Below, piece by piece: positions 44,538-54,538 of a DNA stretch of 64,000 nt. Position numbers and translations under genes: made by a program. Below the pieces are notes generated by a model. It was not told the DNA's origin. It saw only the letters and a program-made list of their open reading frames with translations, and searched no databases. Source of the stretch: Gammaproteobacteria bacterium. Its GTDB lineage: Bacteria > Pseudomonadota > Gammaproteobacteria > JABABF01. Positions within the stretch are counted from its first letter, which is position 1; every line of letters starts with the position of its first letter. Where the stretch lies: the NCBI GenBank assembly GCA_965215045.1, contig OZ244031.1:1386626-1450625 (forward strand). Reading direction: 5' to 3'.

Positions 44538-45350
44538 TTACTTGATCTTGACAAACTTCAGTGTGAAGCGGTCGCTCTCACCGATGGCCTGGTATTTCTC
44601 CCGGTCCTGGTCTCCCAGGCGCATGACGGGGGGCAGGGTCCACACCCCCGCGGGATAGTTCTTTTCATCCCTGGGATTGGCGTTGATCTCGGAGCGGCCG
44701 ACCAGGCGAAATCCCGCCGACTCGATCAGCTGTATTGCGTATTCCTCCGGCACATAACCGGAACTCGCCATGTCCTCCACGCTCATACCGGGAAAGCCCC
44801 GGTGTTCGACCACGCCGAAGATGCCGCCCGGCTTGAGTGAGTGCCATGCCGCATCGAACACTTCTGAAATATAGCCCTCGCTGATCCAGTTGTGCAGGTT
44901 GCGGAAGGTCAGCACCATGTCGGCACTTTCCTCCGGGGCGATGTCATAGTTTCCGCGTCCCAGGGAAGTGATTTTGACCGCGGAGAATGCTGGATTGTCC
45001 CGGATCGCCTCCTCGTATTTCTGCCGGAACCTGCGCCGGTACTCCGGCGTGGGGTCGGGCGGAAAATGCGCGGCATACAGGGTGCCTTTTTTTTGCAGGT
45101 AGGGAGCGAGAATGCGGCTGTACCAGCCGGAGCCGGGCCACAACTCCACCACCGTCATATCCCGTTCAATACCAAGGAATTGCAGCGTCTCCACCGGGTG
45201 CCGGTAGATATCCCGCGCCTGTTCCTCCGCCGGACGCTCCGGCGAAGCCGTGGCGCGCTCCAGGGCCCGGCGTTCCCCGCAGGCCCCCAGGGTCAGGAGC
45301 AGCAGGGCGCACGGTACGGCAAGGCGAATAAAGTTCAGGCTGGGGTGCAT
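44538..45350 (-). CDS. Class I SAM-dependent methyltransferase, predicted lipoprotein
   Basis: Lipobox LLTLGAC; MTase motif VVELWPGSGWYSRIL. Confidence 0.55.
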   Translation of the reverse strand: MHPSLNFIRLAVPCALLLLTLGACGERRALERATASPERPAEEQARDIYRHPVETLQFLGIERDMTVVELWPGSGWYSRILAPYLQKKGTLYAAHFPPDPTPEYRRRFRQKYEEAIRDNPAFSAVKITSLGRGNYDIAPEESADMVLTFRNLHNWISEGYISEVFDAAWHSLKPGGIFGVVEHRGFPGMSVEDMASSGYVPEEYAIQLIESAGFRLVGRSEINANPRDEKNYPAGVWTLPPVMRLGDQDREKYQAIGESDRFTLKFVKIK

Positions 45351-45420: not shown

Positions 45421-46911
45421 CTAAACCATATTGCCCCTGTGGTTTGAAATCCAGCCACCCGTCCCACCGGGATGCAGAAGTCTTCCGGGTTCATCGTTCT
45501 TCTGCAGAAGTTCGGGTGAAAGCATTTCCAGTAGTTCAATGGAATACCAGAATTTATTACCTACTGGTGGTCGTGCAACACCTCTCCACCACGTCTCATG
45601 CTGATTTAGAACTTCCTCAGCATGCTTTTTTTGTTCCGGGGCAGCACCGCTGCCATCTCTACGCATTTTCTCGTAATATTTCTGTAATTGTAATAGCCGA
45701 TCATACTGCTCCACACTTAAATTCTCCGCTATATCCTCGGCCGCTACTATCATTGCGGCTTCAAACCAGCACCCCTCTACCTCCTGTCGTAACCTTGCCA
45801 GGGCTTCCGAGCCAGGATTTTCAAACACTGCATCGACGACTTCCTTGTCCGATGCATTTCTAGTGATAAATCGGTAATACATATCTTGATTGATGGTTTT
45901 TAAGATAAGCATTGCAGTGATCTCTGAAATGAATGATTTGTCGTCATTGGGTAATAGTGCCAACATCGCCCTCATCTGGTGGAGGGCCTGGGCGATATCT
46001 CGAGCACTGAGTTGGCTCGCTGCAAAAAATTTTTGAAAACGATCTCTACTACAAAACAGCTCAGAAGGATTCTTGGTAAACCATCTATTGACATCAACAG
46101 ACCTGAGCATTGTTTCAACAAAGTCTTTTAGTGGCGGGTAGGGAAGCCTGAACGGCAGGTCGAAGAAGCGCAGCAGGTATTTCTCTGCATCGAATTCATT
46201 GCCGTACAGGGCCCGCACCGAATGCGCCAGCTGTTCCCGGTTTACCGCCAACACGAACACGATGTTGTCGACGGCGAACAGGTGCTTGGCGGTTTCCAGG
46301 AATTCTACGGCGTAGCTGGGTCTGCAGCGGTCCAGTTCATCGATGATCACCACCAATGGTTTGTCGCGTTTTTTTCTCAATGCTTCTGCCGACTCCTCCA
46401 GGGTGCTTCTGAAGTCTGTGATCAAGTCGCGGTTTTTTGAGTACTCGGACAATTGTGGCTTGCCGAAGAAGCTGAGTATTTTGTCAATATTGATCCAGCC
46501 TCCTGTTTTATATCGTATGGCGTCTGAAAAAACTTGTATTAATACTTTTTTCCCTGTTTTCTTCAGGCTGGCGATTGTTTCTGACGGTACCTCCCCCGGG
46601 TAATATTTTTGCAGACGGTCGGTCAGTTCAGAGGATAGGGCGATAAAAGGGACCTTCGTAAAATCCGTCTTCCAAGCATTGAACTTTACCACCGGAAACT
46701 TCTCGTTGCGCAGGTATTGCATCCACATCCTGAGAAACGTGGTCTTGCCTGCCCCCCATGGTGCATCGACCGACAACACGCACGGTCCGGTGATGGAGTT
46801 GATGACGTCGGTCAGGATTTTTGCCGCCTCCTCACGCTTGAACAGGTCATTTGCAAAGGGGTTACCTTCAGGTGCTTCCACCTCCAGCGGCTGAATACGC
46901 ATTTTTGCCAT
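45421..46911 (-). CDS. KAP-family P-loop NTPase
   Basis: Walker A DAPWGAGKTTFL and KAP-type Walker B VVIIDELDRCRP; markedly lower GC than surroundings. Confidence 0.7.
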   Translation of the reverse strand: MAKMRIQPLEVEAPEGNPFANDLFKREEAAKILTDVINSITGPCVLSVDAPWGAGKTTFLRMWMQYLRNEKFPVVKFNAWKTDFTKVPFIALSSELTDRLQKYYPGEVPSETIASLKKTGKKVLIQVFSDAIRYKTGGWINIDKILSFFGKPQLSEYSKNRDLITDFRSTLEESAEALRKKRDKPLVVIIDELDRCRPSYAVEFLETAKHLFAVDNIVFVLAVNREQLAHSVRALYGNEFDAEKYLLRFFDLPFRLPYPPLKDFVETMLRSVDVNRWFTKNPSELFCSRDRFQKFFAASQLSARDIAQALHQMRAMLALLPNDDKSFISEITAMLILKTINQDMYYRFITRNASDKEVVDAVFENPGSEALARLRQEVEGCWFEAAMIVAAEDIAENLSVEQYDRLLQLQKYYEKMRRDGSGAAPEQKKHAEEVLNQHETWWRGVARPPVGNKFWYSIELLEMLSPELLQKNDEPGRLLHPGGTGGWISNHRGNMV

Positions 46912-47224
46912 GAGAATTTTCCTCTGTGCAGCAACAAAATATTAATGCGGCGTTTTGCAGCCCCCATCTTACACAACTGTTTTGCCTTTACTTTAGCAAC
47001 CCCAGGGCAGGCGTTCTCCGGCCCGATTCGGCCGGCGTCTATAATTGCCGCAGTCGCGGACGCTTGCGCCCGCCGTCCGGCGGGACTGGATTTCACCGTC
47101 GCACGACGACGCACGATGTATCGCCGCCGGTGCTCCGCCTCCGGGTGCCCCGCACAATGCAGCGGTAGATGCCGGCATGTTGTTTTCAGCCGCCGCGACC
47201 TGATTTTTTGTATATACCTGGTTC

Positions 47225-51344: not shown

Positions 51345-51523
51345 GACCGTCCCCCGGATGGTGATGCGGGATTGCCAGTATACAGCCGCCCCGGGCCTCC
51401 GCCATCTCTAATGGGGCGTTTTCGGCGTGCTCTTATAACCGTACATGCGGGTTGACTGATGGCGTTTATCAGTGCCAGACTGGAGATGAAAAGCGCGGTC
51501 TGAGCCTTTGCGGAGGAGACAAC

Positions 51524-51769
51524 ATGAGCCTCGAAATGTTTCGTGAATTTCTCGGTTGGAGTGCCTTGCTTAACATCGCCCTGGTGCTCTGGTGGTTTTC
51601 GTGGATTGTTTTTTTCCACGACTTCCTCTACCGCATACACAGCCGCTGGTTCAAGTTCTCCTCCGTTGAGAGCTTCGACACCATCCACTATGTGGGCATC
51701 GCTTTTTACGAAATCGTGGTCTGGGCATTTTTCATCATTCCCTGGATTGCCCTGCACATCGTCAGCTGA
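51524..51769 (+). CDS. Small (81 aa) two-TM membrane protein, paralogue 1
   Basis: ATG after GGAGGAG SD; MSLEMFREFLGWSALLNIALVLWWFSW...AFFIIPWIALHIVS. Confidence 0.45.
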   Translation: MSLEMFREFLGWSALLNIALVLWWFSWIVFFHDFLYRIHSRWFKFSSVESFDTIHYVGIAFYEIVVWAFFIIPWIALHIVS

Positions 51770-51824
51770 AGCCGGCGTCGGTTTGCAGACCGGGAATTGA
51801 TCGAGGGCTGAACGAGGAGAAACC

Positions 51825-52070
51825 ATGATGAGTCTTGAAATTTTGCGCGCCGTCCTGGGCTGGTCTGCACTGCTGCAGCTGGGCCTGTTGTTCTCGTGGT
51901 GGCTGCTTTTCCTGCGTGTGCACGATGCGGTCTACCAAACGTGCAGCCGCTGGTTCAAACTCACCCCGGAGGGCTTTGATACCGCCAACTACGCGGCCAT
52001 CGGCTTCTACAAGGTCCTGGTCTGGGCGTTTTTCATCATTCCCTGGCTCGTCCTGCACATCATCGCCTGA
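51825..52070 (+). CDS. Small (81 aa) two-TM membrane protein, paralogue 2
   Basis: ATG after GAGGAG SD; MMSLEILRAVLGWSALLQLGLLFSWW...AFFIIPWLVLHIIA, ~50% identical to paralogue 1. Confidence 0.45.
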   Translation: MMSLEILRAVLGWSALLQLGLLFSWWLLFLRVHDAVYQTCSRWFKLTPEGFDTANYAAIGFYKVLVWAFFIIPWLVLHIIA

Positions 52071-52106: not shown

Positions 52107-53087
52107 TCAGGGAGTGCGGCTTTCGTAAATCAATTTTTTTAAAGTATCGAGATCGTCACTGGCGATCATATCCAGATGAACCCCGAGTGTGTCTGAGACA
52201 CATCGTGCTTGCGCCTTTTCTTCTGCCTGCCATTTCCTGATAAAGGAGAGATCATATTTTTTGTGGTCCCTGTTTTGCAGATTATCGCGAATCATCTCCG
52301 CATTTCCCTGCAGCAGGATCAGACGATCGGGTTTCATAGTGCGAAACACTGCCACATCCACGGGCTCAATCTTTCCTTCTTGATTTAGAAGCGTGAAATG
52401 CCCGGTGATTAACAACCGTCGATGTCGTGTCTGAATACGTCGGATTTCCTCGAGTAATACGTCTTGATTGCCTTTAATATCCTGCACCCGTTTTTCCGCC
52501 TTCGTCATTTTTTTTCTGCGCGCAGAAATTAAATCACCGGCATTAAAGTGTTGGTATCCCATCAACTTGGGCATTTCCTCGGCGAGCGTGCTTTTGCCGA
52601 CACCATGAACACCTCCCATGAAAAGCAATGAGTTGCGAACGGTAGGGTCCACGGATTTACGTTCAGAGATCAGTTTCATGTCTGCATCATCCAGGTAACG
52701 AAAAGATTGCGGGGGAACCGGGCAAGCGGACAGGGCGGATAAAGCGAGGGGAGTTTCCATCTCGTAGATATCACCCAGGATAAAGACGATCGCCGTGCTG
52801 CATCCCGCATAATACTCGCGGAATATGCGTCGCGAAATACCGGCACCGATTGCGGTTTTGTCCCAAATTCTCGTCGGGGGCTCCGCCAGGAGCCGCAGAA
52901 CCTCGGCGATGGCGACGATTTTTTGCGTGGGTGCACTGCAATAGAATGCAAGCTGTGAAATTTCATGCCGGGGGAGAGCTTTACGGTATTCAAAAATTTT
53001 CTTCCCCGATAGAATATTATCGATATGCTCGCGGTAGATAGAAACCAGGGCTGCCTTTTTCATTGAGCCGCTCTTGAATGAAAGCAT
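52107..53087 (-). CDS. ASCH (PUA-like) domain fused to a P-loop kinase-like NTPase
   Basis: N-terminal ASCH-like beta-barrel region (ILSGKKIFEYRK...); C-terminal Walker A LFMGGVHGVGKSTLAEE plus Walker B-like LITGHF; low-GC, overlaps the upstream gene by ~28 nt. Confidence 0.5.
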   Translation of the reverse strand: MLSFKSGSMKKAALVSIYREHIDNILSGKKIFEYRKALPRHEISQLAFYCSAPTQKIVAIAEVLRLLAEPPTRIWDKTAIGAGISRRIFREYYAGCSTAIVFILGDIYEMETPLALSALSACPVPPQSFRYLDDADMKLISERKSVDPTVRNSLLFMGGVHGVGKSTLAEEMPKLMGYQHFNAGDLISARRKKMTKAEKRVQDIKGNQDVLLEEIRRIQTRHRRLLITGHFTLLNQEGKIEPVDVAVFRTMKPDRLILLQGNAEMIRDNLQNRDHKKYDLSFIRKWQAEEKAQARCVSDTLGVHLDMIASDDLDTLKKLIYESRTP

Positions 53088-54538
53088 TTTTTATACCCAT
53101 CATGGTCGATTTCCCGTATGCTTTGAATTTGGCCTCTTACCCCGGCCTGCTTGAGTTCTGCGAGGCCAACGGGATCAATTTCTCGCATGAAGCGAAAAAG
53201 AATCACCAGGGTTTCTTTTTTCAACCACTCTTTGACTCGCACTTTTGCATAGACGGTTCGTTTGGACACCAGGGGCAGTACATCATTGATTTTATTCCCG
53301 CGATAAACACGCTCCACCACCCCGATGCACCGTATATCCCGGCAGTCTCCTGACCGGTAAAACAACAATAAACTGCCCGGGTCAATTTTTTTAGTCTTGG
53401 AGTGACAGATATAAGCGTTTTTGATGGTATTGGTTTCAGGTGTGTACTGGCTGGGGTCATCTGCGAACCGGCCGCGATGAATTTCCGCATCGGGGAAGAG
53501 ATCTCGATGATACTTGGGCTGAACCGGGACAATAAATTTTTTAATAGAACGCTCATCGGAATATAACGGGTAGTATCTGGTTGCGTATTCCAGGGGGCTG
53601 AGTGCGGTATCCGGTGATGTTAGAGGGCGCATGGTTTTCACATACGCCTTGTCTCTTTCTTTGTATGTCCCGCAATCTTGGAAACCAAAGTTCTCACACA
53701 GTGATACCAATGCTTCCCGCTCCTCGCCAAATATGTGTAGGTAGACGTACGGAATCTTTTTTTCTGCGGCATAGTGGAAGGCGGTATAGAGTAATCTTTC
53801 GCCGGTTTTCCGTCCGCGTATGTTTTCTCCCACTTTGAATGTGCATAGTTTTAATGCCGTTCCGTCCAGCTTGTCCCCCGCATCATTAATGACGGGATTT
53901 TCCTCCTGCTGGTAAATGCAAATTGCCTGCACCGTGTCGTTGTCCGTAATACACCATGCTTGTCCTCCCTTGTGCGCCATTTTTTCAAACCATTGCTCGT
54001 ATCCTTCGGAACCCTGACGCAAGGAATCAAAGAACGGTTGTCGGACATCCAATTCATGCAAAAAGCGTCTTTCAACACTACCGGGAGGACTGAATTCTTC
54101 TTCGTTTAAAGTTTCCAGGTGACTGTAAAATTGCACAACACGGTGTACTCTCTCCTCGACTCCAGCCTTTTTGGCCTTTTTATAGATTTCCCGGTCTTCG
54201 GTGACGAAATAGTCGACGGCTCCCCGGCACAGGGCGTGAAGCAATAGATTATCTGTATGCTCCTTCTCGTTGCCCTGTCGCCACCCGTAGCGTTTCAATT
54301 CCTCTTCGGTCAGTTCGGGAAGGGGTTCGATTTGCGGGTACCGGGCCATCCTGGATAACAGTATTTCTTGTCTTTTTTCATTTTTATCCCGTTCAATTTC
54401 CCGCCCTTGGTCGGGCCGGGTATATAAGATATATCCCTGTTGTGCACACCACCTGAGCATTTCTGCGAGCTTGGGGTCCAGCTCCACATCCGGCTCTTCC
54501 ACCTGAATGATGATGTTGGTGTCGATGAGTACCCGCAT
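53060..54538 (-). CDS. Three-domain protein: N-terminal PIN nuclease, central GNAT acetyltransferase, C-terminal ASCH/EVE (PUA-like) domain
   Basis: PIN acidic residues MRVLIDTNIII...FVTEDRE; GNAT core ...HIFGEEREALVSLCENFGFQDCG with RGRKTGERLL (acetyl-CoA P-loop-like Q/RxxGxG/A); C-terminal barrel-like region. Low GC. Confidence 0.5.
   Translation of the reverse strand: MRVLIDTNIIIQVEEPDVELDPKLAEMLRWCAQQGYILYTRPDQGREIERDKNEKRQEILLSRMARYPQIEPLPELTEEELKRYGWRQGNEKEHTDNLLLHALCRGAVDYFVTEDREIYKKAKKAGVEERVHRVVQFYSHLETLNEEEFSPPGSVERRFLHELDVRQPFFDSLRQGSEGYEQWFEKMAHKGGQAWCITDNDTVQAICIYQQEENPVINDAGDKLDGTALKLCTFKVGENIRGRKTGERLLYTAFHYAAEKKIPYVYLHIFGEEREALVSLCENFGFQDCGTYKERDKAYVKTMRPLTSPDTALSPLEYATRYYPLYSDERSIKKFIVPVQPKYHRDLFPDAEIHRGRFADDPSQYTPETNTIKNAYICHSKTKKIDPGSLLLFYRSGDCRDIRCIGVVERVYRGNKINDVLPLVSKRTVYAKVRVKEWLKKETLVILFRFMREIDPVGLAELKQAGVRGQIQSIREIDHDGYKKCFHSRAAQ

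Follow-up and report, generated by a model that had tools for sequence, protein, structure and literature searches.

A gene on the minus strand at 45421..46911 of a 64-kb stretch of gammaproteobacterial DNA (64,000 nucleotides, hereafter the window) encodes a soluble and self-contained P-loop NTPase of the KAP family, which, on balance, we believe probably acts as a single-gene anti-phage protein. By its sequence, the protein is a divergent addition to the KAP family and to the PADLOC candidate family PDC-S20, and a role as an ATP-dependent phage sensor is likely by analogy with KAP proteins whose defence activity has been validated. The gene is ordinary in kind; the unusual material is its occurrence as two divergent alleles at one site in two strains and the link between its relatives and type I restriction-modification (R-M). 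KAP NTPases were predicted twenty years ago to have a role in biological conflict.

An earlier note on this DNA, made from the letters alone, had read a KAP NTPase at these coordinates, and the Pfam search bears this out: KAP_NTPase (PF07693) matches residues 27-297 with an E value of 5.9e-41 and 141.1 bits, against a gathering cut-off of 20. The PADLOC-DB model PDLC04959 for PDC-S20 aligns residues 4-411 with its profile positions 1-415 of 464 (E 1e-108), and three more PDC-S20 models match with E values of 1e-32 to 1e-42. The PADLOC models for PifA (E 1.7e-19) and QatA (E 4.9e-17) match as well, both partially. An exhaustive profile search (E <= 1e-30) assigned 5,862 clusters at 50% identity to the PDC-S20-type KAP family, and because the best 150 of these match end to end, almost all of them at 455-515 amino acids (aa), we regard it as a large family of uniform architecture. 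The exact window protein is on record once, its next relative is 67% identical, and all others are at most 46% identical. Relatives borne by phages are found in phrog_8614 (E 1.2e-64) and at 268 loci on viral contigs, with 27-38% identity, and the GenBank records of plasmids and phages contained no close relatives, only distant ones at 23-38% identity. The parts of the gene and of its product are as follows, the other strain being the one that carries the second allele.

45421..46911, minus strand: KAP-family P-loop NTPase gene, a PADLOC PDC-S20 member; 496 aa as read, of which 476 aa are native and 20 aa a read-through tail
46921..46924, minus strand: GAGG ribosome-binding site, 9 nt upstream of the ATG; the other strain keeps the site
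46834..46911, minus strand: N-terminal segment, residues 1-26, ahead of the Pfam domain
46021..46833, minus strand: KAP P-loop NTPase domain, residues 27-297 (Pfam)
46738..46755, minus strand: Walker A, G53-A-G-K-T-T58, with A50-P-W52 before it (sequence and family alignment)
46357..46626, minus strand: soluble helical insert between Walker A and Walker B, residues 96-185 (hydropathy and model)
46324..46353, minus strand: Walker B, V187-V-I-I-D-E-L-D-R-C196 (invariant family columns)
45484..46020, minus strand: C-terminal all-helical region, residues 298-476, variable between the alleles and across the family
45421..45483, minus strand: read-through tail, residues 477-496; the codon at 45481-45483 is AGA where the other allele has TGA, and the tail ends at TAG 45421-45423

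The catalytic core comprises Walker A, Walker B and the DELDRCRPSY block, and all three are conserved and intact. The earlier note had given Walker A as GxWGxGKT. This motif is intact, but it reads D-A-P-W-G-A-G-K-T-T, so that the first G of the proposed pattern is in fact Ala50, a residue that is invariant in the family, as are W52, G53, G55, K56 and T58; the note's reading of Walker B as hhhDELDRC agrees with residues 187-196. Ahead of the Pfam domain, about half of the 26 positions of the N-terminal segment are at least 90% conserved in the family, and F19, D22 and R26 are invariant. The insert occupies the position where membrane KAPs carry two transmembrane (TM) helices. In the window protein no TM helix was detected, the maximum Kyte-Doolittle mean over 19 residues being 1.34, below 1.6, and hydropathy thus rules out membrane anchoring. 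The Pfam search of the insert and the C-terminal region found no known domain, and no effector domain of the nuclease, TIR or pore type was recognised in the protein. The insert and the C-terminal region are also its most variable parts, both between the alleles and across the family. The PDB contains no sequence homolog. The AlphaFold2 model, built with 52 family sequences (mean pLDDT 80.6, pTM 0.71), comprises a P-loop alpha/beta core, the long helical insert, with low confidence at residues 128-154, and the all-helical C-terminal region. Its best fold match is RdrA, the ring ATPase of RADAR (Foldseek E ~5e-6), followed by AAA+ proteins of the ORC/Cdc6 type. The match to RdrA suggests that the window protein, an ATPase with a helical domain, may assemble into oligomers of the ring type.

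The gene is compositionally foreign. The earlier note had called it AT-richer than its neighbours, and this is what the GC profile gives: the open reading frame (ORF), which begins with ATG and runs for 496 codons as read, has a GC content of 0.484 and a third-position GC content (GC3) of 0.55, against 0.60-0.66 and 0.72-0.81, respectively, in the flanking genes, and it lies at z = -5.5 relative to 555 equally long background windows (mean 0.645, sd 0.029, minimum 0.553). The GC content drops under 53% in just one other place in the window, a second island at 52.1-54.5 kb. Family searches also agree with the note that the neighbours are unrelated metabolic genes: a 270-aa protein, a flavin monooxygenase (FMO) and pstA-pstB-phoU lie on one side, and an MFS transporter, two acyl-CoA dehydrogenases and a GFA-family protein on the other. 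No co-oriented ORF with a coding signature is present in the 313-bp gap upstream of the gene, no match to the type I R-M proteins HsdM, HsdS or HsdR was found in the window, and the borders of the island show no flanking repeats, att-like repeats or insertion scars above chance.

The same site is occupied by a different allele in a second strain, the sole other one on record. The metagenome-assembled genome (MAG) GCA_964348175.1 carries a 67%-identical KAP of 479 aa (P0002) at the same position, in the order MFS, KAP, 270-aa protein, FMO, PhoU. For the ten flanking genes compared, identity is 98.8-100% at the protein level and no lower than 98.4% at the DNA level (99.0% or more for nine of the ten), whereas the two KAP alleles share 67.2% of their protein and 80.5% of their DNA sequence; the allele of the other strain is equally low in GC (0.483). 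The tract in question has the following limits:

45454..46946, no strand: allelic hyper-divergent tract, ~80% nucleotide and 67% amino-acid identity, with flanks ~100% identical

It consists of the ORF, ~35 bp upstream of it and ~27 bp beyond the native stop codon. The divergence is mosaic: identity is 67-75% in the parts encoding the insert and the C-terminal region and rises to 95-98% in the block that surrounds Walker B (46179-46358). At the protein level, the alleles are ~60% identical over residues 1-20 and 45-50% identical over residues 101-180 of the insert. In the other strain the protein ends ...E-P-G-TGA, and the window allele extends 20 residues into the 3' untranslated region, with pLDDT ~30 in the model. 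The synonymous divergence (dS) is 0.37 for KAP against ~0.01 in the flanks, where genes differ at 0.5-2% of third-codon positions; since this is a ~20-70-fold difference, the divergence did not arise in place after the strains split. Neither is it a general property of foreign DNA in this region, because the part of the neighbouring low-GC island that the other strain's contig covers (to 53029) is 98-100% identical between the strains, and the hyper-divergence is thus specific to KAP. A diversity-generating retroelement was considered and rejected: neither a template repeat nor a second copy of a KAP segment is present in the window, and the changes are not specific to adenine, each of the four bases differing at 15-24%. 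Among long ORFs, a YxDD motif occurs, by coordinate conversion, only in the PDC-M11B ORF of the second island, which has no reverse transcriptase domain.

Both alleles have remained open. They are separated by ~280 substitutions and by in-frame indels only, and when substitutions of the observed type and in the observed number were simulated under neutrality, the KAP ORF stayed open in none of 20,000 runs. The overall dN/dS is 0.51, falling to 0.10-0.17 in the P-loop blocks, and the amino-acid identity of 0.672 compares with a neutral expectation of 0.632, only ~3 sd below it. Two 40-codon windows have a dN/dS above 1, which we do not regard as significant. On the strength of the simulations, the dN/dS values and the identity, selection keeps both alleles intact and preserves the catalytic core, and it tolerates or favours change elsewhere. 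The divergence is roughly symmetric with respect to a family outgroup (18 vs 26 sites), and among 5.8 billion clusters neither allele has a closer relative than the other. The simplest account of the two strains is that an ancestor acquired the gene once at this site, that its copies then diverged in separate lineages and that homologous recombination later exchanged the alleles, the pair possibly being maintained by frequency-dependent selection. The earlier note had proposed a single-gene defence acquisition. Defence is still the best reading, but the acquisition is not specific to the strain, nor demonstrably recent, as the other strain has an allele at the same site. The note had also considered the opposite possibility, that all relatives share it as a core gene whose GC is like that of the host; the two strains available for this judgement do not bear that out.

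How such a protein could act is suggested by the KAP proteins already studied. Four single-gene KAP proteins block phages, and either a Walker B mutation or a C-terminal deletion abolishes their protection (PMC13552941, 2026); Tmn is another KAP NTPase used in defence. The view of the earlier note that KAP NTPases remain functionally uncharacterised is therefore outdated for the class, which includes PifA, QatA and Tmn together with these four. By analogy with the validated proteins and their need for Walker B and the C-terminal region, we propose three steps. The variable helical surfaces of the insert and the C-terminal region would recognise a phage-derived trigger; binding of the trigger would switch the NTPase, which probably works as an oligomer in the manner of the ring-forming RdrA and of ORC/Cdc6-like ATPases; and, because there is no separate effector domain, NTP hydrolysis would itself be the output, either by remodelling or blocking a phage or host protein complex or by consuming nucleotides. 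The divergence of the alleles would then reflect diversifying or balancing selection on specificity, with alleles being exchanged by homologous recombination. Abortive infection, which the earlier note had offered as one possibility, finds no support; EF_KAP, the only KAP tested for it, did not act in that way (PMC13552941).

The genomic contexts of the relatives add a second line of evidence. The nearest large clade, at ~44% identity, was read at nine chromosomal loci, and toxin-antitoxin (TA) or defence genes adjoin KAP in all nine. In five of them KAP starts 12-173 bp downstream of a same-strand hsdS-like gene; four of these five loci have hsdM, and in three KAP lies between hsdM and hsdR. 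The claim that the gene has no partner is true of the window locus, but in this clade KAP usually follows hsdS, mostly within type I R-M loci. The hsdS-KAP operons also hold TA pairs, Schlafen/AlbA, ThsB-TIR, reverse transcriptase and similar genes. The remaining four contexts contain a DndB/helicase/PLD cluster, RelB/YafQ, HigB with a transposase, and, adjoining mutS, an islet of MNT/HepT and RelB. Across the nine loci no one partner recurs throughout, no hsd gene lies within 6 kb of any of 80 distant relatives borne by prophages on viral contigs, and the window locus has no partner; the single-gene status of PDC-S20 rests on these results. KAP is AT-richer than its surroundings in three of the nine loci, those with flanks of host GC. 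At one hsdS-KAP locus (L092, 5482..10081), an hsdS-DUF559/MTES_1575 gene and KAP, together with a 55-aa ORF, are placed between YbeY-domain ORFs of 109 and 116 aa; the arrangement resembles a two-gene cassette of 3.9 kb that was inserted within or at ybeY, and neither hsdM nor hsdR is close by. In three proteins among the matches listed (P0144, P0161 and P0271, ~46% identical to one another), HsdM_N (PF12161) is fused ahead of a full KAP module. Our literature search found no paper tying KAP-family proteins to hsdS, and the allelic hyper-divergence at one locus, the recurrent hsdS-KAP order and the HsdM_N-KAP fusion appear to be undescribed in the literature searched.

The hsdS-like genes that precede KAP have features of their own. 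Three of them are unusually long, encoding 656-746 aa (L087, 5715..7955; L091, 5772..7976; L092, 6005..7975), and carry C-terminal nuclease-like DUF559 and MTES_1575 domains. At another locus (L094), a giant helicase 3.6 kb from KAP carries DUF559 and MTES_1575 too.

It is tempting to speculate from these contexts that KAPs of the PDC-S20 type are accessory or guard proteins of type I R-M, and that the window copy is an orphan that either serves an R-M system elsewhere in the genome or has lost the link. There is a precedent in PrrC: its gene lies between hsdS and hsdR in the EcoprrI locus, and the R-M enzyme keeps the protein latent until an anti-restriction factor of the phage sets it free (PMC1484252, PMC2610378). 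The close spacing of KAP behind hsdS in five of nine relatives, the placement of three copies between hsdM and hsdR and the HsdM_N-KAP fusions all speak for it. We nevertheless consider this explanation rather unlikely. Unrelated defence genes are known to settle inside type I R-M operons (bioRxiv 10.1101/2024.01.29.577857), so that adjacency to hsdS is weak evidence when taken alone. Moreover, an hsd gene was scored close by in four of the nine chromosomal relatives and in none of the 80 prophage-borne ones, the window itself is free of hsd genes over its 64 kb, the HsdM_N fusion is rare, and the KAP protein does not carry a nuclease domain of the PrrC type. A more elaborate form of the idea makes PDC-S20 KAPs the fourth component of type I R-M, again as PrrC-like guards, with the window copy an orphan under balancing selection whose old alleles are exchanged as phage triggers shift. 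KAP would in this case dock on the R-M enzyme, through an interface that has become covalent in the HsdM_N-KAP fusions, and the hypervariable insert and C-terminal region would sense anti-restriction factors or stalled complexes before an ATP-driven response. We judge this form unlikely.

Two further explanations start from the window copy itself, and several observations that weigh against an active anti-phage protein belong here. The window KAP departs from the family at ~28 of 157 conserved positions, against a median of 4 in other members, and this, together with the loss of the stop codon, could reflect relaxed constraint. The scan for promoters and terminators at KAP gave no sigma-70-like promoter and no terminator. 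A decaying orphan, that is, a defence gene once functional, now under relaxed selection and inactive, would account for these features, for the disordered tail of 20 residues, for the overall dN/dS and for an amino-acid identity so close to neutral expectation. Such decay is quite unlikely, as both ORFs are complete despite ~280 substitutions, the neutral simulations never kept the frame, indels are in frame only, the invariant catalytic residues are all kept and the P-loop blocks remain under low dN/dS. Most of the departures from consensus are common to both alleles, so that they are features of the lineage and not signs of recent decay. Turning to function, validated KAP defences have TM helices and the window KAP has none; the TM-score of its model to RdrA is only 0.34-0.41; and the trigger and effector steps proposed above are steps that we infer. 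The gene also lies outside a strict defence island, the only other candidate being PDC-M11, 5 kb away. No paper found in our literature search names PDC-S20, the PDC candidates tested so far in the literature being others. In addition, the population sample consists of two strains: a metagenome search for further strains, anchored on the MFS protein, returned nothing closer than 45%, and a search for exact copies of the PhoU sequence led to the other MAG and its source assembly alone. One could ask whether the protein has no part in defence and is merely a companion of defence genes: an NTPase that, for example, regulates complex assembly on behalf of the host or a mobile element. Regulation of protein-complex assembly was the role first proposed for KAP NTPases, the protein has no effector domain, and the window gene sits between metabolic genes. 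However, no conserved metabolic or mobile-element partner is present in any context, the 80 distant relatives of the 270-aa neighbour are never found beside KAP, and both the strong association with PADLOC, TA and R-M genes and the allelic hyper-divergence are typical of immune genes. This last explanation is very unlikely, and a single-gene anti-phage protein that senses phage through its variable surfaces is the account we favour.

Other features of the window lie beyond the KAP gene. The second low-GC island (52107..54538, minus strand, GC 0.484) is a candidate two-gene defence system 5 kb from KAP, consisting of two overlapping genes:

53060..54538, minus strand: PDC-M11A-type gene, 492 aa, with a GNAT match (PADLOC PDC-M11A, E 1.6e-124)
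52107..53087, minus strand: PDC-M11B-type gene, 326 aa, with an ASCH-like N-terminus and an AAA_17 kinase-like P-loop (PDC-M11B, E 4e-29)

Between the GFA gene and this island, at 51452..52070, two small DUF6868 genes stand in tandem. Their products, of 105 and 81 aa as read, are predicted membrane proteins; the first gene has a lower GC (0.50), and the other strain has both genes. The 270-aa neighbour of KAP (44538..45350, minus strand) is a widespread protein; it was negative in the Pfam search and begins with a hydrophobic stretch like that of a signal peptide. Its relatives, at 45-58% identity, occur in many MAGs of Steroidobacteraceae, Woeseiaceae, myxobacteria and others, in unrelated contexts; among 80 distant relatives (<=58% identity) there was no synteny, and a KAP gene stood beside none.

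A further difference between the strains is found in a non-coding patch at 47105..47190, 35-120 nt upstream of the MFS start, where 20 of 85 positions differ; around it, identity is ~99-100%, both over the 120 bp towards KAP and in the coding sequence of the MFS gene. A small partner ORF was rejected here, as no frame has a coding-like ratio of synonymous to non-synonymous changes and a 1-nt indel lies just upstream in the other strain. A structured RNA was rejected as well: the two sequences yield no more than 3 compensatory pairs, and Rfam gave no match. The patch may be a second mosaic recombination tract.

The validated single-gene KAP phage defences are membrane-anchored, and the window locus offers a clean example of the soluble form that lacks an effector domain. 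This soluble PDC-S20 form, a candidate defence family, comprises more than 5,800 clusters at 50% identity. The two strains provide a natural experiment, with two intact alleles differing by 33% in protein within genomes that are otherwise 99-100% identical, and the concentration of the differences in the insert and the C-terminal helices gives a map of where specificity may lie. The adjacency to hsdS and the HsdM_N fusions supply, in turn, a hypothesis for how an NTPase without an effector might be wired into immunity. If the gene is inactive, it is one more candidate defence gene that can be annotated.

Set against the known systems, the window KAP is not a member of the PifA, QatA or RdrA groups, nor a membrane KAP of the Tmn/EF_KAP type. 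With PifA of the F plasmid, which excludes T7, it shares the KAP core: the PADLOC model matches residues 42-358. Only positions 39-355 of the 720-position PifA model align, however, and because this covers half of the model with a score far below that of the PDC-S20 match, we regard PifA as a sister family to which the window protein does not belong. QatA is likewise a KAP-type defence NTPase, but the NCBIfam QatA model scores 63 bits against a cut-off of 600, and no QatBCD genes are among the neighbours of the window KAP. Tmn, also a KAP-type defence NTPase, has two TM helices in its P-loop domain, and no Tmn model matches. EF_KAP and three metagenomic KAPs (PMC13552941) resemble the window protein in being single polypeptides with a KAP NTPase and a C-terminal region; EF_KAP is described as having two TM helices, one N-terminal and the other within the NTPase domain, and the window KAP has neither. 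The window protein is set apart from both Tmn and EF_KAP because it is without a hydrophobic stretch of TM length.

RdrA of RADAR (PDB 8hr8, 8fnu) is the best structural match, at 14-15% identity, but it is a protein of ~800-850 aa that works with the deaminase RdrB, and no deaminase gene neighbours the window KAP. The likeness to PrrC/EcoprrI is one of position, since the KAP of the relatives takes the prrC slot in the order hsdM-hsdS-X-hsdR; PrrC itself combines an ABC-type NTPase with an anticodon-nuclease domain and is not a KAP protein, and the window has no hsd genes. Compared with PDC-S20 itself, the window copy and its allelic partner form a divergent branch, at ~44% identity to the rest and with the departures counted above, and the window copy stands without hsdS or a defence-island setting. 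It nonetheless agrees with PDC-S20 in a near full-length match to the profile, a length of ~480 aa, a single-gene organisation and a KAP core followed by a helical C-terminal region.

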